Position numbers and translations under genes: made by a program
Source of the DNA: Chloroflexota bacterium
GTDB taxonomy: Bacteria; Chloroflexota; Chloroflexia; QHBQ01
Length of the DNA stretch: 64,000 bases
Reading direction: 5' to 3'
Assembly (NCBI GenBank): GCA_043754535.1
Contig: JAYUUN010000093.1
Coordinates: 19,590 to 83,589, forward strand
In this document: piece after piece, positions 22,967 to 63,406 of the stretch
Numbering within the stretch: position 1 is the first letter of the stretch
How the letters are laid out: each line of letters begins with the position of its first letter
The notes under the pieces: generated by a model
Databases searched by the model: none
What the model was told of the DNA's origin: nothing
What the model saw: the letters and a program-made list of their open reading frames with translations, nothing else

Positions 22967-24463
22967 CTAGCGACCTACCTTGTTGGGGCCGAGGCTGACG
23001 CGCTGGGCGCGGCTACCGTCGTGCGAGAGTAGTATGCGCTCGTCGCCAACCACAGTCTCTAGATGCACAGGCCGCCCCCACAGTTGGTGGATGTACTGCA
23101 AGACCTTCTCCGCATAGCTCGCATCCAATTCCTGGCCCTCGTAGTGGTGGCGCAGGTAGAGTTCGTGGTTGCGGTTGTAGTCGCCATCGTCAACGGTGAT
23201 GTAGGGCTGGCCGAAGTTGGTCATGCTAGCAACGATGCCATCGCGCACCTTCTCCCAGTTCTTCTCGACGATCACCCACTCGTTGCCCTGCTTGGCGTAG
23301 AGGTAGAGGTCTAGCTCGGCGATCAGTTCTTTGGTCAGGTAGTTGCGGAGGAAGGATACATCATTGTCCATCTCGCGCACCTCGAATATCTTGGCCCGAC
23401 CCTGGCCGGGAACGCGCTTGAGGCGGTCACGCTCCTCCTCGGTCGGTGCGTCCCAGCGGCGTTCGATGGACTCGTAGAGTTTGAGGCCCAGGTAGTAGGG
23501 GTTGAGTTGGAAGCGCGAGTGATGCATCACGCCCGCATTAACTTTGGCGTACTCAGTGTAGTCGTCGCTACTCATCTCAAACTCGCGCATGATGCTCTGG
23601 TGGTGGTAAGCGGCCCAGCCCTCGTTCATAATCTTGGTCTGCATCTGCGGCACAAAGTAGAGCATCTCCTGATGCACGATGCCGATCACGTCACGCTGCC
23701 AATCCTCAAGGTGGCGGGCGTGCTGCTGGAGAAAGAGGAGCAAGTCCTTCTCTGGCTGGGCCGGGAAGCGGCGACGCTCGCTCTCCTTCTTCTCCTTCTC
23801 TTTCTCCTTCTCACTCTTGAGCGGCAAAGCGGCTTGCTGGGCCGCCTCTGCCTCAGTCGGCAGCCCTGGTAGCGACCAGAGGTCGTCGTAAGCAGACTCA
23901 GCCACGTGCGGCTTCACCTGCTCGCGGCGGTTGCCCTCGCTCTCCTCACCCGCTGTGGCGAAGCTCTGGTGCGGATCGATGTGTTCGGAGATCGAGAGTA
24001 CCGCGTCCAGGAACTCCTCCACCTTCTTGCTGCCATGCTGGTACTCATATTGGCGGATACGCTCGGCATTGAGGCTGGCGGTCTCGATCATGTGGCGGTT
24101 GGTGCGCTGGAAGTAGATGTTGTTCTTAAAGAAGTCCACATGGCCGAGGACATGGGCGGCAACCAGTCGGTTGGCGGTCAGGCTGTTGTTCTCCAAGAGG
24201 AAGGCGTAGGCAGGGTTAGTGTTGATCACCATCTCGTAGATGATGCTCAGACCAAAGTCGTACTGCATCTTCATCTTGTTGTACGCCTTGCCATGCGTCC
24301 AGTGGCTGAAGCGACCGGGAATGCCATATGCACCGAACTCGTACATGATGCTGGCAGGCACCACCTCGAAGTGGACGGGGTAGAAGTCCAGCCCGTTGGC
24401 TTTCGCCATCTCGACGATCACCTCAATATCTTTGGTTAGCTGCTCGTAGTCTTGTTCGTTCAA
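22967..24463 (-). CDS. spoVR: SpoVR-family protein
   Basis: It aligns residue for residue with the B. subtilis SpoVR N-terminus (GLDFYP...FGAYGIPGRFSHWTHGKAY). It has a TTG start with AGAGGGT 6 nt upstream. Confidence 0.9.
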   Translation of the reverse strand: MNEQDYEQLTKDIEVIVEMAKANGLDFYPVHFEVVPASIMYEFGAYGIPGRFSHWTHGKAYNKMKMQYDFGLSIIYEMVINTNPAYAFLLENNSLTANRLVAAHVLGHVDFFKNNIYFQRTNRHMIETASLNAERIRQYEYQHGSKKVEEFLDAVLSISEHIDPHQSFATAGEESEGNRREQVKPHVAESAYDDLWSLPGLPTEAEAAQQAALPLKSEKEKEKEKKESERRRFPAQPEKDLLLFLQQHARHLEDWQRDVIGIVHQEMLYFVPQMQTKIMNEGWAAYHHQSIMREFEMSSDDYTEYAKVNAGVMHHSRFQLNPYYLGLKLYESIERRWDAPTEEERDRLKRVPGQGRAKIFEVREMDNDVSFLRNYLTKELIAELDLYLYAKQGNEWVIVEKNWEKVRDGIVASMTNFGQPYITVDDGDYNRNHELYLRHHYEGQELDASYAEKVLQYIHQLWGRPVHLETVVGDERILLSHDGSRAQRVSLGPNKVGR

Positions 24464-24467
24464 TGGT

Positions 24468-25080
24468 TTACCCTCTGGTTAGCCTCTGGTAGGCGGCACG
24501 AACTGCTACTTCTAGTTCGCTAGCTTGAACTTCGTAGCGAGCAAAGTTTTGTATGTTGTCTGGCTTCATGTGAATCTGGCCTTCGCCTACGTTACCTCGG
24601 TGCTGACCTTTTGAGTAGCCTCTAATCTGGGTTAGCTCATCTGCCTTGATCACCCAGAACCGGGCAACATCAAGCCAGACAGCTATAAAGACAAAAACTG
24701 AAGCCTGTGCAACCTTCAATTGCTGAAAGTTCATGTCGAAGTAATAGCCAGAAGTTGACAGGAGTGGAACACTCGCACCTTTATCCCCTTGCGGGGCTTG
24801 CCCCATGCTCTACTGGTTTTGACTTCTACTTTAATATTATCTAGAGTAGTATCGTAGCTGTTGCCCAAAGGTGGTGTCATGCCAGGAACGTTGCTCATTA
24901 CTTGCATAACCCCCACTTGCCAGTGTCGGTTGGAGCGGAGAACGCAAAAACGTGAGCGTAGGTCTGACTTTGATCAGCCATGTACTCCTGCTTCAGCCGC
25001 TCATACGCCGCTATGACCGCTGGATCAGCCAGTTGCTCAAACAGCGCATCCAGCCTTTGCCACAGTTCGTCAATCGTCAA
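24468..25080 (-). other. low-GC (~48%) 613-bp segment with three overlapping small ORFs in three different frames (60, 61 and 112 aa)
   Basis: Windows of ~60 nt here have 42-53% GC, against ~62% in the flanks. The three ORFs overlap by 19 bp and 76 bp. The first has a TTG start 9 nt after the methyltransferase stop and no Shine-Dalgarno sequence. The third ends 5 nt before spoVR, inside the spoVR Shine-Dalgarno sequence. The middle frame carries a D-x9-EVK pattern (SYDTTLDNIKVEVK). Confidence 0.3.
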
Positions 25081-25089
25081 GTGCTTGCC

Positions 25090-26064
25090 TCAATCGAACA
25101 ATGATAGCTGCCCACTATCATCCACAATGCTGTCAATGGTGCCGTCAAGTTCAGCCGCAAACGGATTACTGTTCTGCCAGCCGCGCTTGCCGCTAGCTCG
25201 CCAGCGTTCCAACCTGCGGATCGTGATCTCGCAGAAGACCGCATCGTTGTCCATCGTGAAGCAGCGGCGGCCCGATAGTTCAGCTTGCAGCAGGGTCGTG
25301 CCAGAGTGAGCGAAGAAGTCCAGCACGGTGTCGCCTGGCTGCGAACTGGCGTTGATGATCCGCTCGATAGCCTTGAGCGGCTTCTGTGCGTAGCAACCGT
25401 TGACGTTTTCTTCCAGCCGGTAGAAGACCTGCTGGACATCGAACCAGACGTTGCCTGCCCGGATGTAAGGCGACTTGCCACGCTCGGTGTTCTCGGTCAG
25501 TTCGCCTTCAACTTCCTTGTAGTAACCCTTGACTGCCTTCGGTATCTCGGTGTACTGCGGCGTGAAGAAGGGCTTGCCCAGCGTGTAGTAAAGCAACTCC
25601 TGCCGAACAGCCATCCAGTTGTGTTGCGTGCCGTAGCCACGCTGGTTACGCATGGTGATGAAGCTGCGTGAAGAAAACGGCGTGTTGCTCATCATCAGCA
25701 TAAACTGCGGCAACGGCTGATAGTGGTTGTCCTGATCCGCCCCCAGCCAAACATAGAGGCTGCTAGTAGGCAGCAGCACAGCAGCGGTGTTGTCCACCCA
25801 CTGCCGACACCATGCAGCGTACTCGTCGGCTGAACGGCTGGCGAAGGCAACGAGGTTGTAGGGTAGGTCCTGCACCGCCAGAGCCGCTTTGTCGTTGCCG
25901 CACAGCTTACTAACATCAGCGGCGGATGCGGCATCCAGGCAGCCAACGCGGTGGCCGCCAACGGCATCCACCCACACCTCGCCCGGACGCAGACGGCAGA
26001 AGTCGAGCAAGCGGATGCGTAGCTCCTGCTCCTTGTCCAAGCGTGGTAGTGGATTAGCGATCAT
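25090..26064 (-). CDS. beta-class N6-adenine/N4-cytosine DNA methyltransferase (motif IV before motif I)
   Basis: Motif IV is DLPYNL, a variant of DPPY. Motif I is QPGDTVLDFFAHSGTT, followed by ...AQKPLKAIERII.... The start overlaps the yeaH stop (ATGA at 26061..26064). No intact restriction enzyme gene lies adjacent. Confidence 0.8.
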   Translation of the reverse strand: MIANPLPRLDKEQELRIRLLDFCRLRPGEVWVDAVGGHRVGCLDAASAADVSKLCGNDKAALAVQDLPYNLVAFASRSADEYAAWCRQWVDNTAAVLLPTSSLYVWLGADQDNHYQPLPQFMLMMSNTPFSSRSFITMRNQRGYGTQHNWMAVRQELLYYTLGKPFFTPQYTEIPKAVKGYYKEVEGELTENTERGKSPYIRAGNVWFDVQQVFYRLEENVNGCYAQKPLKAIERIINASSQPGDTVLDFFAHSGTTLLQAELSGRRCFTMDNDAVFCEITIRRLERWRASGKRGWQNSNPFAAELDGTIDSIVDDSGQLSLFD

Positions 26065-27254
26065 CTTTGGGCAGCCTCCGGCATCCCCAGCGTGGGGTCG
26101 AAGAACTTCTTGAGGGCGGGGTAGACATCGCGCTTGTCGGTGATCGTCACGTTGATGAAGTGCTTGTTCTGCAACTTACTGAAGGCCGACATCAGCGTGC
26201 TGCTGCTGCCCCGGTAGCCTTCACGTATCTCGCCATAGCCGAAGATGTTGCAGATTTCGAGTAGCTTGTTGACCTGCTGCACACACAGTTCGTTGTCCCA
26301 GGGTAGGTTGTCACCGTCACTGAAGTGGAAGGGGTAGATGTTCCAGTCTTGTGGTGGATAACGGTCGGCAATCACCTTGAGGGCCAGTTCGTAGGCCGAG
26401 GAGACCTGGGTGCCGCCGCTCTCACCCTTGTGGAAGAAGTCATCCTCGCTAACTTCATGCGCTTCGGTGTGGTGGCTGATGAAGACGACACGCACGTTAT
26501 TGTACTTGGTTCGCAAGAAGCGCACCATCCAGAAGTAGAAGCTGCGGGCAATGTACTTCTCGAACTCGCCCATGCTGCCGCTCACGTCCATCATGGCGAT
26601 TACCACCGCGTTGGACTGGTAGCGCACTTGCTGCTCCCAGGTCTTGAAGCGCAGATCCTCCTTACGCACGTCATGAAAGTGGGCATCACCATGTGCGGCG
26701 TTGCGCTTGATATTCTCGCGGATCGTACGCCGCTTGTCGAGATTAGGCATCATGCCAGTGCGTCGCACGTCGGTAAACTTGATCGTCTCCGACTCCATCT
26801 CCTGCTGCTTGCGCTCCTCCAGGTAGGGGAGGCCGAGGTCGGCAAAGAGCAGGGCCGCCAGTTCATCGAGGCTAACTTCGGCCTCAAAGTAGTCGTAGCC
26901 TGGCTGGTCACCCGCTTCGCCCTGACCCTTGCCTGCGCCCTTGCCCTTCTTATCGCCCGCCTGCCCGATCACATCGCCGACGCGGGACTCGCCCTCTCCA
27001 CCACCCGCGTGCTGACCCGTGCCTGGGTCGTAGCGGAAGCGATACTCGTCGAGGCTGCGGATCGGCACCTTGACCGTCTTCTTGCCGTCGCTGAGGATGA
27101 TACTTTCGTTGGAGACAATATTGCCGAGGTTCTTCTTCAGAGCCTCCTTGATCTTCTCCTTGTGGCGTTGCTGATCAATCGGCCCCTTGCGATGCAGCGA
27201 CCAGTCGTGCTGCGAAATACTGGTGCTGCCAGGGGGGAGAAGGTTGTTGCTCAT
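26061..27254 (-). CDS. yeaH: YeaH/YhbH family protein (DUF444, vWA-like)
   Basis: Its position between prkA and spoVR, its length and its conserved C-terminal vWA-like region (MMDVSGSMGE...) all fit. The ATG at 27254 is the likely start; the track TTG at 27272 has no Shine-Dalgarno sequence. Confidence 0.85.
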   Translation of the reverse strand: MSNNLLPPGSTSISQHDWSLHRKGPIDQQRHKEKIKEALKKNLGNIVSNESIILSDGKKTVKVPIRSLDEYRFRYDPGTGQHAGGGEGESRVGDVIGQAGDKKGKGAGKGQGEAGDQPGYDYFEAEVSLDELAALLFADLGLPYLEERKQQEMESETIKFTDVRRTGMMPNLDKRRTIRENIKRNAAHGDAHFHDVRKEDLRFKTWEQQVRYQSNAVVIAMMDVSGSMGEFEKYIARSFYFWMVRFLRTKYNNVRVVFISHHTEAHEVSEDDFFHKGESGGTQVSSAYELALKVIADRYPPQDWNIYPFHFSDGDNLPWDNELCVQQVNKLLEICNIFGYGEIREGYRGSSSTLMSAFSKLQNKHFINVTITDKRDVYPALKKFFDPTLGMPEAAQR

Positions 27255-27348
27255 AACATACCTGCCTTGCAAAGGGGCGAGTAGCCACCCACCCCACGTA
27301 GAAGTTGCGTTTGACAGAGGGTACTGCCAAGCTCTGGTGGCTGCCCAG

Positions 27349-29244
27349 CTAGCGGTTCAGCAGGCTGCCAACGTACTTGAGCAGTTCGTTCGCGCTGGCG
27401 GGGGTGTAGCCGTGCTGCTCGACCAGACGGCTAACTACCTCGTTGACGCGCTTCAGTTGCTCTGGGTCGGGCGTGCGACTGTTGGTGGTGATCTTCACGA
27501 TGTCGCGCAGATCGGCGAACAGCTTGCGCTCAATCGCTTCCTTCAGCCGCTCGTGCGAGGTGTAGTCGAAGCTCTGCCCACGCCGCGCCAGGGTGGAGAT
27601 ACGGATCAGGATTTCTTCGCGGAACGCCTTCTTCGCGTTCTCGCTCACCCCGATCTGCTCCTCGATGCTCCGCATCAGTTGCTCGTCGGCATCCATCTCC
27701 TCCTCGGTGATCGGGTCCTTGAGCTTCTGCTTGTTGCAATATGCCTCTACGTTGTCCAGGTAGTTGTTCAGCACCGTCTTGGCCGACTCCTCGAACGAGT
27801 AGACGAAAGCCTTCTGCACTTCCTTCTTGGCGATCTCGTCGTACTCCTTGCGGGCCTCGGCGATGAAGTTGAGGTACTGCTCGCGTTCTTCCTTGTTAAT
27901 GCTAGTGTGCTGCTCGAAGCCGTCACGCAAGGCACGCAGAGCGTCAATCGGGGTGATGAACTCGATCCCCTCCTTGACTAGCGCGCTACTCAGGCGGTTG
28001 ATCACGTAGCGCGGGCTGATACCGCTCATCCCCTCGCGTTGGGCCTCCTCCTGCAACTCGCGCACATCCTTGCCCTTGAAGTCATCAAGCTCCTCACCAT
28101 CATACAGCTTGAGCTTCTTCATCAGGCTCATACCATTCTTCTTCGATGGCTCAAGCCTGGTCAGCACCGCGAAGATGCTGGCGACCCGCAGCGTGTGTGG
28201 GGCGATATGCACACCTTTGAGTGCGCTCTGCTGGATCAGCTTCTCGTAGATACGCACCTCGTCGCTGACTCGCAAGTTGTATGGCACCTTGACCAGGATG
28301 ATGCGGTCTTGCAACGCTTCGCTCTTGCGGTTGCCAACGAAGCTGCTGTACTCGCTCTCATTAGTGTGGCTGACCACTACTTCATCAGCGTAGATCATAC
28401 TGAAACGACCCGTCTTGATGTTCTGCTCCTGCGACAAAGTTAGCAGCACGTAGAGAAACTTCTCATCGCTCTTAAGGATTTCGATGAACTCCATCATGCC
28501 CCGGTTGGCAATGTTCAGTTCACCGTCGAAGCGATAGGCGCGAGGGTCGCTCTCACTGCCCACCTCACCAATGGTGCTGAGGTCAATCGAACCGACCAGT
28601 TCGGAAATGTCCTGCGACTTCGGATCGGAGGGGGTGAAGGTGCCGATGCCAATGCGTGCCTTCTCGCTGAAGGAGAGGCGGCGTACTGGCACCTTCTCCA
28701 TGCGTCCCTCGTAGGTATGTTCCAGGTCGTAGGCGCAGCGGGGGCAGAGATCGCCCTCGATGTAAACCCCATACTCGCGCTCGATGTCGGCGCGCAGTTC
28801 GCGCGGGATCAGGTGCAGCGGCTCCTCGTGCATCGGGCAATCGCGGATGGCATAGACCGACCCCTGCTCGCTGCGGGTATAGCTCTCCAGCCCACGCTTG
28901 AGCAGGCTGACCAGGGTAGACTTGCCGCCGCCCACCGGCCCCATCAACAGGAGGATGCGCTTACGCACTTCTAGCCGTTGCGCGCCGCTGCTGAAGTATT
29001 CCACGACCTGCTGCAACGACTTGTCCAGGCCGAAGATTTCGTCGTCGAAGAACTTGTAGTGCGCTTCACCCCGCTTGTTGGTCTCCACCCCACCGTTGAT
29101 GATCATGTCGTAGATGCGGGCGTGCGAAAGTTGCGCAGCACGTGGGTTTTTGGTGACAACCTCGAAGTATTCGGAGAACGTTCCCTCCCAGTTTAGAGCC
29201 TTCTCGATCGCCCGGAACTCTTCCAGCTTCTTGATGATGTCCAT
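27349..29244 (-). CDS. prkA: PrkA/YeaG serine protein kinase (AAA+ N-terminal domain)
   Basis: The ATG at 29244 with AAGGAG 8 nt upstream gives MDIIKKLEEFRAIEKALNWEGTF, which matches the B. subtilis PrkA N-terminus. Walker A is GPVGGGKST. Confidence 0.9.
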   Translation of the reverse strand: MDIIKKLEEFRAIEKALNWEGTFSEYFEVVTKNPRAAQLSHARIYDMIINGGVETNKRGEAHYKFFDDEIFGLDKSLQQVVEYFSSGAQRLEVRKRILLLMGPVGGGKSTLVSLLKRGLESYTRSEQGSVYAIRDCPMHEEPLHLIPRELRADIEREYGVYIEGDLCPRCAYDLEHTYEGRMEKVPVRRLSFSEKARIGIGTFTPSDPKSQDISELVGSIDLSTIGEVGSESDPRAYRFDGELNIANRGMMEFIEILKSDEKFLYVLLTLSQEQNIKTGRFSMIYADEVVVSHTNESEYSSFVGNRKSEALQDRIILVKVPYNLRVSDEVRIYEKLIQQSALKGVHIAPHTLRVASIFAVLTRLEPSKKNGMSLMKKLKLYDGEELDDFKGKDVRELQEEAQREGMSGISPRYVINRLSSALVKEGIEFITPIDALRALRDGFEQHTSINKEEREQYLNFIAEARKEYDEIAKKEVQKAFVYSFEESAKTVLNNYLDNVEAYCNKQKLKDPITEEEMDADEQLMRSIEEQIGVSENAKKAFREEILIRISTLARRGQSFDYTSHERLKEAIERKLFADLRDIVKITTNSRTPDPEQLKRVNEVVSRLVEQHGYTPASANELLKYVGSLLNR

Positions 29245-29786
29245 TGCTCTGTCTCCTTCGCAAGCGGGACGGTTGCCCAAAACCGCCGCGCTCACCTGCC
29301 TTGACTGTTGGGGACGGCCCCGCTGAACGGTATAATAATTATACGCCAGCTTGCCGACCGGGGTTGCACAACACTGCCTACCAACAATGCCACGAAGTTA
29401 AAGATCAGGTTAGAATTGCCTTGACCAGGTACAGAAAGAGGACACTGCCGCGCCACTGAGCGGCTCTTGCGAACCGTCGGTTGGCGACACTGCCCTCCTT
29501 ACCAAACTACTATACAGCGATCTTGCGGGCGCATACGCTTTGCCCTTCTAGCTGCCACTGCTGTGTTTCAAGGTTAAGATCATCTGGCTCTTTTACCCAT
29601 TCTTTGGCAAGGGGGCAGCTTAGGGACTGCCTACGTTACTCTTATCTTACCATACGCTGCAAATCTTGACAATAGCGCATTGGTACCGCCAGCTAGCAGC
29701 CAACTGATGACAATATGCAGGGAACGTGCCAGACGCAAAAGCCGCCCCGATGTTGCAGGGCGGCTGCGATGGGCCAAAAGCCGCAC

Positions 29787-30727: not shown

Positions 30728-30804
30728 TGGTAGCGCATAGGGGATTCGAACCCCTGGTCTCATCCTTGAGAGGGATGTGTCCTAGGCCGCTAGACGAATG
30801 CGCC
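30728..30804 (-). tRNA. tRNA-Glu (anticodon CUC)
   Basis: I folded the 77-nt cloverleaf by hand. The acceptor is GGCGCAT/ATGCGCT, then A, then CCA. The D-arm is GTCTAGCGGCCTAGGAC. The anticodon stem is CATCC/GGATG with loop CTCTCAA (anticodon CTC). The T-arm is AGGGG-TTCGAAT-CCCCT. Confidence 0.75.
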
Positions 30805-59935: not shown

Positions 59936-62518
59936 TCAGGCTGGGCGGCGTAGGCGGCTGCTACGTGGTGGGTTGGGGATGATGCGCTGCTGGTTGCTGC
60001 TGCGTAGCGGGTTGCTTCGTAGCGAGCCACCACGGGCAGGCGTGGCTGGCGGAGGGCTGGCGGAGGGGGTGCTGGGCCGCTGGCCGCTACGCTGGGTGGT
60101 AGGCTGCGGAGGTCGGTTACTGCTACCGCTCTCGTTGGTCAGGCGGGTAGCAGAGTAGACCTCCTTGATCGCGCTGATGCGGGCCAACACCTGGCGCAGT
60201 TGCGACACGCCGCTCACCTCCAACGTCACCGTGACGCTGACTGTGCCGCGCCGTTCCTCGCGGGCGGTGTTGATCATCGCAATGTTTACCTTCTCCTCGG
60301 AGATGATGCCAGTGATCTTGTGCAGCACGCCCGAACTGTCGAGTGCATTGATCATCACGGCCACTGGGTAGCGTTGGCCGTGGGTTCCCCACTCTACCTT
60401 GAATAGGCGATCCGGGTCGAAGCCGCCGACGTTGGCACAGTCGGCGCGGTGGATGGTGATCTTGCTCACTTTGGTCGAGTAGGCTGTCACCTCATCGCCG
60501 GGCATGGGGTTGCAGCAATGGGCAGGCGACCAGGCGATGCTGCGCGAACCGTCAATGACCAGCTTACCCTGCTCCTCGCTGGGCAGCGATAGCTTGCTGA
60601 TCTTCTCCTTCGCCTCCTCCTCCTGTTCCCCTTCAGCCCGATCAAGCACAGTCTTGGGGAACTTATCGCTGATCATCTGGCCGGTGATCTCGCCATAGCC
60701 GATGGCAGCAAGGAACTCATCCGTGGTACGGAAGCGGGTGCGCGAGAAGTAGGAGGCGATATCTTCGTAGCTCAGGCGGGTAAGGCCCAGGCTTCGCAGT
60801 TCTGCGTCAAGGATGCGCTTACCTTCGGTGATGTTCTCGTCACGCTGCTGACGACGGAACCATTGCTTGATTTTAGCCCGCACCGAGGGGGATTTGACGA
60901 AGTTCTTGCTCTCGTCCAGCCAATCGCGGGTAGGGCCGGGACGTAGCACCTTGTTGGTGATCACCTCCACCACCTGGCCGTTCTGCAAGGGGGTACTAAA
61001 GCTCGCCGTCTTGCCATCCACAATCGCCTGGATCATGTGGTTGCCGATGTCGCTGTGGATGTGGTAGGCAAAGTCAACCGGGGTCGAGCCAGCAGGCAGT
61101 TCGCGCACATCACCGTTAGGGGTGAAGACGTAGATATAGTCCTGGAAGGCCTCCGATTTGAAGTCCTCAACAAACTGGCTGGGGCTACTCACGTCTTTCA
61201 TCCAGTCGATCAGGCGGCGCAGGCTAGCGATCTTGTCCAGCAGCTTTTCGTCAGCGGGTGAGTCCTCTTTGTACCGCCAGTGGGCAGCAAGACCGTACTC
61301 TGCCTCCTCGTGCATATTGCTGGTGCGAATCTGAATCTCCACCGAGCGACCGTCTGGGCCATGCACTGCCGTGTGCAGCGAGCGGTAGATGCCGTTGCGA
61401 GGCGAACCCAGGTAGTCGTCGAACTCAGCAATAATTGGCCGCCAGATGCTGTGGATGATGCCCAGTGCGGTGTAGCACTTGCGCCAGCCGGGGCTACTTT
61501 TGCCCACAGCAGAGCTTTCCAGGTCGCCCTCCTCCGAGGGGATGATCACCCTAATACCTAGCACGTCATAGATTTCGTCCGCGGGGCGGTTCTTACGCTG
61601 CATCTTGCGCCACACACCAAACAGGTGCTTGCTACGCCCCTTGACCACCACATCAATGCCGATGTCGGCCAGGCTGCTACGAATCTCAGCAATCATCTGG
61701 GCCAGATAGCGGTCGTCACCCGCCTTGCGCCGTTGCAGGTCGCTCTGCACCTGGGCGTAGGCTTCGGGTTCGAGGTAGCGGAAGCAGAGGTCTTCCAACT
61801 CGTTCTTGATCGCCGACATACCAAAGCGGTTGGCAAGGGGAGCGAAGATGTCAAGCGTCTGGTTGGCGATCCGCTTGTGCTTGTGGGCAGGCTGGGCGGC
61901 TAGCGTCCGCATATTGTGCAGGCGGTCGGCCAGCTTGATGAAGACGACCCGCAAATCTTCCGCCATAGCAAGGAACATCTTCCGCATATTCTCGGCTTGC
62001 TGATGTTCCTTTACCATCTCAGCCTGCCGCTCGGCACTGACTTCGGGGCCAGAGCCAACCCCACTGTGTTCGCCAAACTGCGACTTCTCCAGCTTGGTCA
62101 GCCCATCCACCAGTTCTGCAATGCGGGTGCCAAACTCCTTCTCAATGTGTTCCTTCGTGCAGGGAGTATCCTCGATCACGTCATGCAACAGGGCTGCCGC
62201 CAAAGCTTCGCGGTTGACCAGATGGACATCGCGCACCACGATCAGAGCAACCTCCAGCGGGTGCTGGATGTACGGCTCTCCACTACGGCGCGACTGGCCC
62301 TCATGGGCGGCGCGGGCGAAGTTGTAAGCCTGCTCTACTACGCTGAAGTCGGCATCTGGCTCGAACTGTTGGATTGCGGCGCGCAGGTCGTCAATGGTGG
62401 CGTGGCTGACTGGCACCAAGGGAAGGGGGAGGTCGTGCTTGACCTGATTGTGACTTGTTACCATCGCTGCACCTGCTTGCTGAGGGGGTAGCCAGAAGCG
62501 AGACAATGCCATAAGCAC
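59936..62518 (-). CDS. rel: bifunctional (p)ppGpp synthetase/hydrolase Rel with a ~75-aa Ser/Pro-rich C-terminal tail
   Basis: It has the HD hydrolase motif (HDVIEDT), the synthetase motif (DVLGIRVIIP), and the TGS and ACT regions. The start could be 62518 or 62464. Confidence 0.85.
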   Translation of the reverse strand: MLMALSRFWLPPQQAGAAMVTSHNQVKHDLPLPLVPVSHATIDDLRAAIQQFEPDADFSVVEQAYNFARAAHEGQSRRSGEPYIQHPLEVALIVVRDVHLVNREALAAALLHDVIEDTPCTKEHIEKEFGTRIAELVDGLTKLEKSQFGEHSGVGSGPEVSAERQAEMVKEHQQAENMRKMFLAMAEDLRVVFIKLADRLHNMRTLAAQPAHKHKRIANQTLDIFAPLANRFGMSAIKNELEDLCFRYLEPEAYAQVQSDLQRRKAGDDRYLAQMIAEIRSSLADIGIDVVVKGRSKHLFGVWRKMQRKNRPADEIYDVLGIRVIIPSEEGDLESSAVGKSSPGWRKCYTALGIIHSIWRPIIAEFDDYLGSPRNGIYRSLHTAVHGPDGRSVEIQIRTSNMHEEAEYGLAAHWRYKEDSPADEKLLDKIASLRRLIDWMKDVSSPSQFVEDFKSEAFQDYIYVFTPNGDVRELPAGSTPVDFAYHIHSDIGNHMIQAIVDGKTASFSTPLQNGQVVEVITNKVLRPGPTRDWLDESKNFVKSPSVRAKIKQWFRRQQRDENITEGKRILDAELRSLGLTRLSYEDIASYFSRTRFRTTDEFLAAIGYGEITGQMISDKFPKTVLDRAEGEQEEEAKEKISKLSLPSEEQGKLVIDGSRSIAWSPAHCCNPMPGDEVTAYSTKVSKITIHRADCANVGGFDPDRLFKVEWGTHGQRYPVAVMINALDSSGVLHKITGIISEEKVNIAMINTAREERRGTVSVTVTLEVSGVSQLRQVLARISAIKEVYSATRLTNESGSSNRPPQPTTQRSGQRPSTPSASPPPATPARGGSLRSNPLRSSNQQRIIPNPPRSSRLRRPA

Positions 62519-62869
62519 TGCCTCACACTACGTTGTATGAGCCAGAAATCGAGGGGAGGAGCGGAGAGCGGGAGACCAGCAGCAATCTGCTATGCTGGTG
62601 GCTCACCTATATAATAGCGCAACTAATTGCAAATGTCAACTTGTTTTCCACCAAAACCGCTAGGCAGCCGTCAGAACTAGGTTGCGAGCAGTTTTGGCAC
62701 ACGAAATCGGGTGGTTGAGGCTCTCTCACCATTCTCACACTCAAAGATCATGCCCAGCCCTTGACATTTGACCAGATTGTGATTAAAATAACTATTGGAG
62801 CGGCCAGGTTGTACAGCGTCTGGGCAGACGCTCCGCCATTATGACAGTGCGTAAGGAGAGGATTTTGCG

Positions 62870-63406
62870 ATGAACAGCCAGCAAGTTGAGGAATTGACAC
62901 GTATTCTTAGCCAGCACAACACCTTCTTTGTTGCCACCAGCGACGACAACCAGCCCTGGATCACCGGCCTCTACATGGGCTTCGAGTTCTTCCCAGTGGC
63001 GGGTGAGAGCGACCAGTTCGGCTTGCGCTTCTACGCTTCGGTGCTAAGCGACAGCCGCAAGCGCAAGAACCTGGCGATCAACCCCAAGGTCAGCTTCTAC
63101 ATCGGCCCCGATCAGCCCAGCGAGTGCATCCAGGGCATGGGTGAGATGTACATCATGGAGCAAAGCGAGCAGGAACACGCCTATCAAGTGTTGACTAGCA
63201 ACGCTCCCGCCGCCCAGTTCTTCATTGACAACCTGCCAGTCAGCCCAGCGATCATCAAGGCCACCGAGGTCAAGCTCGCCAATTACTACGAGGCCGACAA
63301 GAACCGCCGCTACTTCCTGGATGCCGAGACGGGCCACGAACTGCTCAACCCCTGGACGGGTGGTGGAGTGAACGCCGCCGAGGTGATCGAGGCCGCCGCC
63401 CACTAG
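62870..63406 (+). CDS. pyridoxamine 5'-phosphate oxidase-like FMN-binding split-barrel family protein
   Basis: The pattern FFVATSDDNQPW...YF resembles the PNPOx-like fold family. This is a weak pattern assignment. Confidence 0.5.
   Translation: MNSQQVEELTRILSQHNTFFVATSDDNQPWITGLYMGFEFFPVAGESDQFGLRFYASVLSDSRKRKNLAINPKVSFYIGPDQPSECIQGMGEMYIMEQSEQEHAYQVLTSNAPAAQFFIDNLPVSPAIIKATEVKLANYYEADKNRRYFLDAETGHELLNPWTGGGVNAAEVIEAAAH

Follow-up and report, generated by a model that had tools for sequence, protein, structure and literature searches.

A low-GC island between a DNA methyltransferase gene and spoVR in a Chloroflexota bacterium is very probably the remnant of a Type II restriction endonuclease gene

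Based on the analysis presented here, the low-GC island that lies between a DNA methyltransferase gene (M) and spoVR in the 64-kb window (the whole stretch of DNA that was analysed) is very probably the dead restriction endonuclease gene (R) of a two-gene Type II M-R cassette that was horizontally inserted in the prkA-yeaH-spoVR operon, with the M being left behind as an orphan. The remnant of R is denoted by ψR. In the proposed pathway, which is given in the presumed order of events, horizontal transfer would first have placed a cassette, having M and then R on the same strand, in between yeaH and spoVR. R would then have been inactivated by a frameshift near 24795 and by deletions of about 34 and 7 codons, which are present in all of the sampled strains, and a second inactivating frameshift, located in a run of five or six G, would still be varying between the strains. 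The methyltransferase would have stayed intact, with its codon usage drifting toward that of the host, and ψR would have kept its low GC, or have drifted further toward it, because of no selection on ψR. Today, ψR most likely has no protein role and would behave as a transcribed spacer that is read through by the transcripts of the operon or of M to reach spoVR, with its 3' end supplying the ribosome-binding site of spoVR.

Composition, layout and homology of the island

The features are collected in Table 1. The start codon of M overlaps the stop codon of yeaH (ATGA). The stop codon of M is at 25090-25092 and the first of three small ORFs begins 9 nt later; the last of them has its stop codon at 24470-24468, 4 nt before the TTG start codon of spoVR at 24463, with the SD-like AGAGGG of spoVR (24478-24473) lying within the final codons of this 112-aa ORF. 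The same 498-aa spoVR is called in independent assemblies. It is noted that an earlier reading made from the letters of the window (called the sequence-only reading below) had described three overlapping ORFs of 60, 61 and 112 aa, with overlaps of 19 and 76 nt, which is exact on the ORF listing, and had placed the first 9 nt after the methyltransferase stop and the end of the last at the spoVR SD, both of which junctions are confirmed from the sequence.

The same reading had given the GC of the island as 42-53% against about 62% in the flanks. The low value stands on recalculation, which had been set as a possible refutation: the GC of 24468-25080 is 49.6%, compared with a mean of 61.0% (sd 3.2) over all 613-nt windows of the 64 kb (z = -3.6), and in 200-nt windows it is 46.5-49%. 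The island is the GC minimum, with 0 of the 62,163 non-overlapping 613-nt windows being as low and the next lowest having 51.9%. The GC of the flanking genes is 58% rather than 62%, with 61% being the mean of the 64-kb window, and the figures of that reading are thus about right. The second-lowest GC stretch of the window, of about 52%, is at 62319-62931.

Table 1. Features of the locus, in window positions
Feature	Position	Strand	Basis or remark
prkA	27349-29295	minus	same strand as yeaH, M, ψR and spoVR
yeaH (DUF444), host operon gene upstream of the insertion	26061-27272	minus	Pfam DUF444, 2.2e-112
M, beta-class N6/N4 DNA methyltransferase, apparently intact	25090-26064	minus	Pfam N6_N4_Mtase, 3.9e-25
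ψR, probable Type II (PD-(D/E)xK) restriction endonuclease pseudogene split over three frames	24468-25080	minus	stitched homology, PADLOC, GC
ψR fragment 1 (ORF1), N-terminal helical region, 60 aa	24898-25080	minus	alignments to the family
Frameshift 1, G5 run on the coding strand, polymorphic	24910-24914	minus	G5 vs G6 among assemblies
ψR fragment 2 (ORF2), 61 aa, catalytic-core motif YD-x8-EVK	24731-24916	minus	tblastn HSPs 24922-24806, second frame
Frameshift 2, approximate, at the GCAAGCCCCGCAAGGGG stretch	24790-24800	minus	frame change between ...SRAWGK and APQGDKG... vs L067 and the family
ψR fragment 3, C-terminal half, 112 aa (FDMNFQQxK ... GQHRGNVGEGQ)	24468-24806	minus	best preserved part
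spoVR, host operon gene downstream of the insertion	22967-24463	minus	Pfam SpoVR, 2.3e-140

The three frames were joined at their overlaps, giving a stitched ψR query of 204 aa. With this query, 361 matching proteins were obtained, whose length is about 240 aa (identity 40-46%, coverage 86-97%, best E 1.4e-34), and the alignments to this family are colinear through all of the three frames, including those by tblastn, with the first frame containing the motif ...YxxVF(E/A)xSAPxxxGxxW, the second YD-x8-(I/V)EVKxSRA and the third FDMNFQQxK...VWxD...W...GQHRGNVGEGQ. Because of the colinear alignment to one family of about 240 aa, the three ORFs are, as judged from these alignments, consecutive fragments of one gene and not three genes. 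One suggestion of the sequence-only reading, that the island is a decayed gene of about 200 aa, formerly a PD-(D/E)xK restriction endonuclease, which was acquired with the methyltransferase, is thus supported by the colinear frames, by the intact homologs adjacent to M genes and by the match to PDLC03414 described below. The PD-(D/E)xK-like motif that had been pointed out in the middle frame, which reads YD-x8-EVK, aligns with the family-invariant D...E-V-K and adds to this support.

The nature of the family is considered as follows. PADLOC PDLC03414 (REase_II, 'Type II restriction enzyme') is matched by intact members with E-values of 5e-83 to 5e-71, by the stitched ψR with 2e-26 and by the 112-aa ORF on its own with 4.7e-22. 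A DNA methyltransferase gene precedes each intact family member that was inspected, with both genes on one strand and 2-11 nt between them. The partner methyltransferase is an N6_N4_Mtase in L001/2 and L005/6 (57-61% identity to M of the window) and in L073/4 (72%), and in L003/4 (Azonexus) it is an unrelated gamma-class N6_Mtase/Eco57I/TaqI_C enzyme; five further intact M-R pairs (L112, L116, L133, L149 and L152) were found in the metagenome survey. With the AlphaFold2 model of the intact member P0001 (pLDDT 89, pTM 0.80), the top Foldseek match in the PDB is the homing endonuclease I-Ssp6803I (probability 0.99), where the best E-value is 4.5e-3, with none being <= 0.001, the TM-scores are about 0.3-0.5 and the nuclease matches are interleaved with low-probability acyl-CoA dehydrogenases. 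The other matches include MepB, the SPARDA nuclease, NaeI, EcoRV and the PrfA resolvase, all of which, together with I-Ssp6803I, we take to be PD-(D/E)xK-type nucleases. In the predicted fold, the family-invariant E (of FEISAP), D (of YD) and E-V-K would be placed as the PD-(D/E)xK catalytic residues.

No Pfam or NCBIfam family was matched by the three ORFs or the intact homologs, searching the PDB sequences with a profile of 54 sequences gave chance matches only (E > 0.7), and tblastn of an intact homolog against the PLSDB plasmids gave no match. All of the family members carrying a source name are annotated as 'hypothetical protein'; a restriction-enzyme family of about 240 aa would thus be situated outside the coverage of Pfam and NCBIfam, which leads genome annotation to say 'hypothetical'. 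From the PADLOC label, the gene context and the predicted fold with its weak Foldseek E-values, the family is probably a Type II restriction endonuclease, and the ancestral R would once have been a cutting enzyme. With the PDLC03414 / PD-(D/E)xK family the window copy shares the sequence match, the M-then-R order with the spacer of 2-11 nt and, of the family arrangement E...D-x8/9-E-V-K, the part from D onward, a nuclease fold being tentatively predicted for the intact members; it differs in having two frameshifts and two deletions and in having lost the first acidic residue. It is thus similar to the family across its length and has the methyltransferase neighbour, but it does not have an uninterrupted full-length frame, and because of the two frameshifts and the deletions of about 34 and 7 codons it is filed as a pseudogene of the family rather than as a member enzyme.

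Insertion into the operon and state of the methyltransferase

Immediate neighbourhood of yeaH and spoVR is seen in about 35 other genomes, which belong to several phyla and have tens to about 150 nt between the two genes; the nearest Chloroflexi-type relatives L007, L038 and L051 are among them, and in a fourth such relative, L041, the gap reaches about 380 nt. Between the two genes, the M-ψR segment of 1.6 kb is present in the window species only. Judged by this gene order, the M-ψR cassette has been inserted there. Neither convincing target-site duplications nor convincing inverted repeats were found on the two sides of the insertion, and a search for closer relatives with an intact R in the same operon, made among GTDB genomes with SpoVR and JGI metagenomes with the methyltransferase, returned only the same-species contigs and the related MAG L067 (GCA_038230695.1).

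The proteins of L067 are 90% (PrkA), 82% (YeaH), 69% (SpoVR) and 77% (M) identical to those of the window. In L067, a block of hicA-like, hicB, M and R is located between prkA and yeaH, that is, in a different slot of the same operon, and the DNA homology between the two cassettes, of 73.5% over 1051 nt, spans M and reaches the first part of R. The R of L067, in which one in-frame TAA is present, has its full length and none of the lesions of the window copy. The L067 cassette is also much less ameliorated, with a GC3 of 50-59% vs 76-84% in the host genes. The two cassettes could have arisen either from one ancestral insertion followed by rearrangement or from two independent insertions. At L067:1177-3360 and L067:3381-4586, the TAA of R is seen at the conserved QH-R-GN and yeaH is seen to contain an in-frame stop (GEF*KY); these stops may represent either real pseudogenes or errors of the MAG.

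M has 324 aa, is of full length relative to its homologs, retains 135 of the 138 columns that are conserved at >=95% among 119 homologs, and has a family-typical motif I (FAHSGTT). It was considered whether M is degenerate, since its motif IV is DLPYN and that of the three intact-R partners is DPPYN; this was rejected, DLPYN being the majority form in the clade, with about 82 of the 120 closest homologs having DLPYN and about 36 having DPPYN (70 and 33 by regular expression plus 12 and 3 by eye among the 15 unmatched sequences). As in the beta-class N6/N4 methyltransferases (PF01555), M has the N6_N4_Mtase domain with motif IV (D-P/L-P-Y) located N-terminal to motif I (F-x-H-S-G-T-T). It is not the orthologue of CcrM, a solitary beta-class methyltransferase (NCBIfam score 37.9 vs a cutoff of 830). 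As with solitary methyltransferases such as CcrM, most members of its clade are solitary. With the methyltransferase being intact and conserved and the adjacent endonuclease being degraded and more diverged, M has the features of an orphan and may still methylate DNA.

The host genes have a GC3 of 79-81%, M one of 73% and the ψR fragments one of 46-62%. Where R-M pairs are intact in other genomes, the GC of M resembles that of R, with both being below the host. Most simply, this is read as a cassette of low GC whose selected gene has been ameliorated and whose dead gene has not. It is also noted that 3 of the 4 SNPs in the methyltransferase gene among the strains are non-synonymous vs 4 of the 22 in prkA, yeaH and spoVR (Fisher p = 0.047, with small numbers), the non-synonymous changes being E186D, F269L (at an otherwise invariant Phe) and R287S. 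This is a weak hint that the methyltransferase may be under relaxed constraint. At all four SNP positions, 25206, 25260, 25507 and 25591, the window and L060 differ from the other strains.

A further proposal is that domestication has made the methyltransferase a stable member of the prkA-yeaH-spoVR operon, transcribed together with its other genes, and that ψR, in particular its preserved 112-aa 3' ORF, has been kept since the expression of spoVR depends on reading or translating through it. The overlap of the M start with the yeaH stop, the near-host GC3 of M and the occurrence of the 77%-identical M with its R in another slot of the operon in L067 would all be in line with this proposal, which we nevertheless regard as improbable. 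The domestication, if true, would mean that methylation is co-regulated with this stress/sporulation-type operon.

The operon genes of other genomes carry insertions of another kind. In-frame inserts of about 1.1-1.3 kb are seen in spoVR of L038 (L038:6819-8032), L041, L049, L051 and L057 and in prkA of L007 (L007:1498-2594), L041 and L051 (L051:1904-3081), the hosts being several Chloroflexi, Acidobacteriota and Sandaracinaceae genomes. Because Pfam found Intein_splicing and LAGLIDADG_3 in the two inserts tested, the inserts are considered to be inteins with homing endonucleases; prkA and spoVR of the window contain no inteins.

Lesions, strain variation and alternative readings

Fragment 1 of ψR has lost about 34 codons near 25020, and with them the invariant SVYPFNEYEY block, and FEISAP has become FAFSAP, where the conserved Glu is replaced by Ala; the fragment retains 10 of 30 highly conserved family positions. 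Fragment 2 has a 7-codon deletion near 24869. The window copy keeps D and E-V-K, without the first Glu of the triad. Fragment 3 contains no stop or indel; over 24764-24480 its identity to intact family members is 55-60%, and of 42 highly conserved positions it retains 34, compared with 21 of 46 in fragments 1 and 2 together (Fisher p = 0.0009; p = 0.07 with the deleted positions excluded).

Ten other metagenome assemblies, which come from various samples and assemblers and are 99.6-100% identical over the operon or have the same methyltransferase and pseudogene, belong to the same species, and the pseudogene has essentially the same length in them. Together with the window, they give 11 sequences that are identical at the site of frameshift 2. 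Seven assemblies could be aligned across the whole operon, and because only one 1-nt indel is found in ψR, these seven operon-wide contigs share both deletions. The G run is G5 in the window and 6 assemblies and G6 in 4, with the G6 allele fusing ORF1 and ORF2 exactly as in the stitched query. The distribution of G5 and G6 is independent of the SNP haplotypes, and this pattern fits repeated slippage in unconstrained sequence. The polymorphism within the species in ψR consists of 1 SNP and 1 indel, which is too sparse for a selection test.

The uneven decay along ψR is not predicted by a pure neutral-decay model, and it can be asked whether the 112-aa ORF is still working, either as a shortened protein that has taken on another role or as a frame that is kept open for translational coupling to spoVR. 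This would be consistent with its being the best preserved part, with all of the five lesions of ψR lying upstream of it and with its end being so close to the start of spoVR, whose SD it contains. However, in the AlphaFold2 model the segment contributes only a portion of the central sheet of the nuclease core and is unlikely to fold alone, its GC3 is 49% vs 80% in the host genes, no strong SD precedes its ATG, and it is uncalled in the seven same-species contigs with gene calls shown. Moreover, against R of L067, the closest relative, all of the three segments are equally diverged (44, 45 and 48% identical), the asymmetry in favour of the 112-aa ORF is non-significant once the deleted positions are excluded, and coupling to spoVR would explain the open frame but not the conservation of residues. 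We consider a working 112-aa ORF to be quite unlikely.

Somewhat less likely still is that the island is a non-coding regulatory element or sRNA, or carries a functional spoVR promoter, which was another suggestion of the sequence-only reading and which has in its favour the position of the island immediately upstream of spoVR, its being AT-richer than the surroundings and a single site on the coding strand, at 24880-24851, that resembles a promoter (9/12 match). The Rfam cmscan of 24300-25300 on both strands gave 0 matches at E <= 1, and over the whole window at the gathering score it gave tRNA only, the sole RNA gene detected in the 64 kb by Rfam and ARAGORN being a tRNA-Glu(CTC) at 30728-30804 on the minus strand. 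The count of promoter-like sites, 4, is not above that of the shuffled controls (2.3 +/- 1.7), the counts of terminator-like sites are also at the level of the shuffled controls, and the sequence of the island is fully explained as a protein-coding remnant. An incidental promoter inside ψR is conceivable. From the stop codon of M to spoVR, the coding strand is free of terminator-like sites, and transcripts may read through from M into spoVR.

That the three ORFs are independent small protein genes, as had also been suggested, has a vanishing probability: each is open, has 60-112 aa and has a possible start codon, but they are colinear pieces of one 240-aa family with no identity other than as endonuclease fragments, ORF1 and ORF2 are fused in the strains with the G6 allele, they have no Pfam matches of their own, and they are uncalled in the other assemblies with gene calls shown. 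Equally negligible is the chance that errors of assembly or sequencing have produced the frameshifts in an intact endonuclease gene, as might be suspected from the location of both at short homopolymer runs (G5; C4/G4): frameshift 2, being the same in 11 sequences from different samples and assemblers, is not a sequencing error, and even after the repair of both frameshifts the product would be short of about 34 and 7 residues, an invariant motif among them, and would have no conserved Glu.

Related methyltransferases and wider meaning

The wider clade of M was surveyed at 87 loci with enough flank, comprising M relatives (62-72% identity) or same-species copies. A complete R is directly downstream at 7 of the 87 loci, with more copies being cut off at contig ends, and no R at all is found within at least 900 nt downstream at 52; at about 12 loci there is a shorter convergent paralog of 186-187 aa, having D..EVK and QHxGNVGEGQ and preceded by an HTH C-protein-like ORF. 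Because of these counts, with 52 loci being without R, the loss of R appears to be common in the M clade, in which the window would represent an intermediate stage.

It was reported that 24% of orphan methyltransferases adjoin degraded restriction endonucleases and that the divergence of M and R is decoupled (Seshasayee et al. 2012, NAR 40:7066, PMC3424554). As in those orphans, here an intact methyltransferase lies beside a more diverged, broken endonuclease with a signature of horizontal acquisition, and the decoupling that is a hallmark of the degradation is also seen here, M being 77% and R 44-48% identical between the window and L067. The present case differs in that the lesions are placed with nucleotide resolution, polymorphism persists at one of them, and the cassette is inside a host operon.

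The decay of an R-M system to a solitary methyltransferase is a well-documented and ordinary route, and the current understanding is unchanged by the present case. What it would offer is a nucleotide-resolved snapshot of an R-M system becoming a solitary methyltransferase, with one frameshift fixed and another segregating, and an example of an operon that tolerates a selfish cassette of 1.6 kb between two of its genes. The points of mild interest are the polymorphic frameshift, the operon-internal location and the restriction-enzyme family that is missed by standard annotation.

Two groups of relatives met in the survey are described here. The orphan methyltransferases nearest to M of the window (69-71% identity), which have no R, are those of L068-L072 and L078-L081; in L068-L072, the loci with gene calls shown, the order of a PhaC-like hydrolase, an HD-domain (dGTPase-like) gene and the methyltransferase is conserved, with the methyltransferase start overlapping the stop of the HD gene (ATGA). 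The short convergent paralog is located at L142:1379-1942(-) and L131:4025-4585(-), and similar copies are found in L118, L119, L136, L138, L139, L141, L143, L145, L150 and L154. It overlaps the 3' end of a related methyltransferase gene, contains the motifs D..(I/V)EVKFS, NIQQVK and KQHEGNVGEGQ, and has upstream of it an ORF with an XRE-type HTH that is similar to controller (C) proteins. This paralog appears to be a second putative R family that is paired with the same M family.
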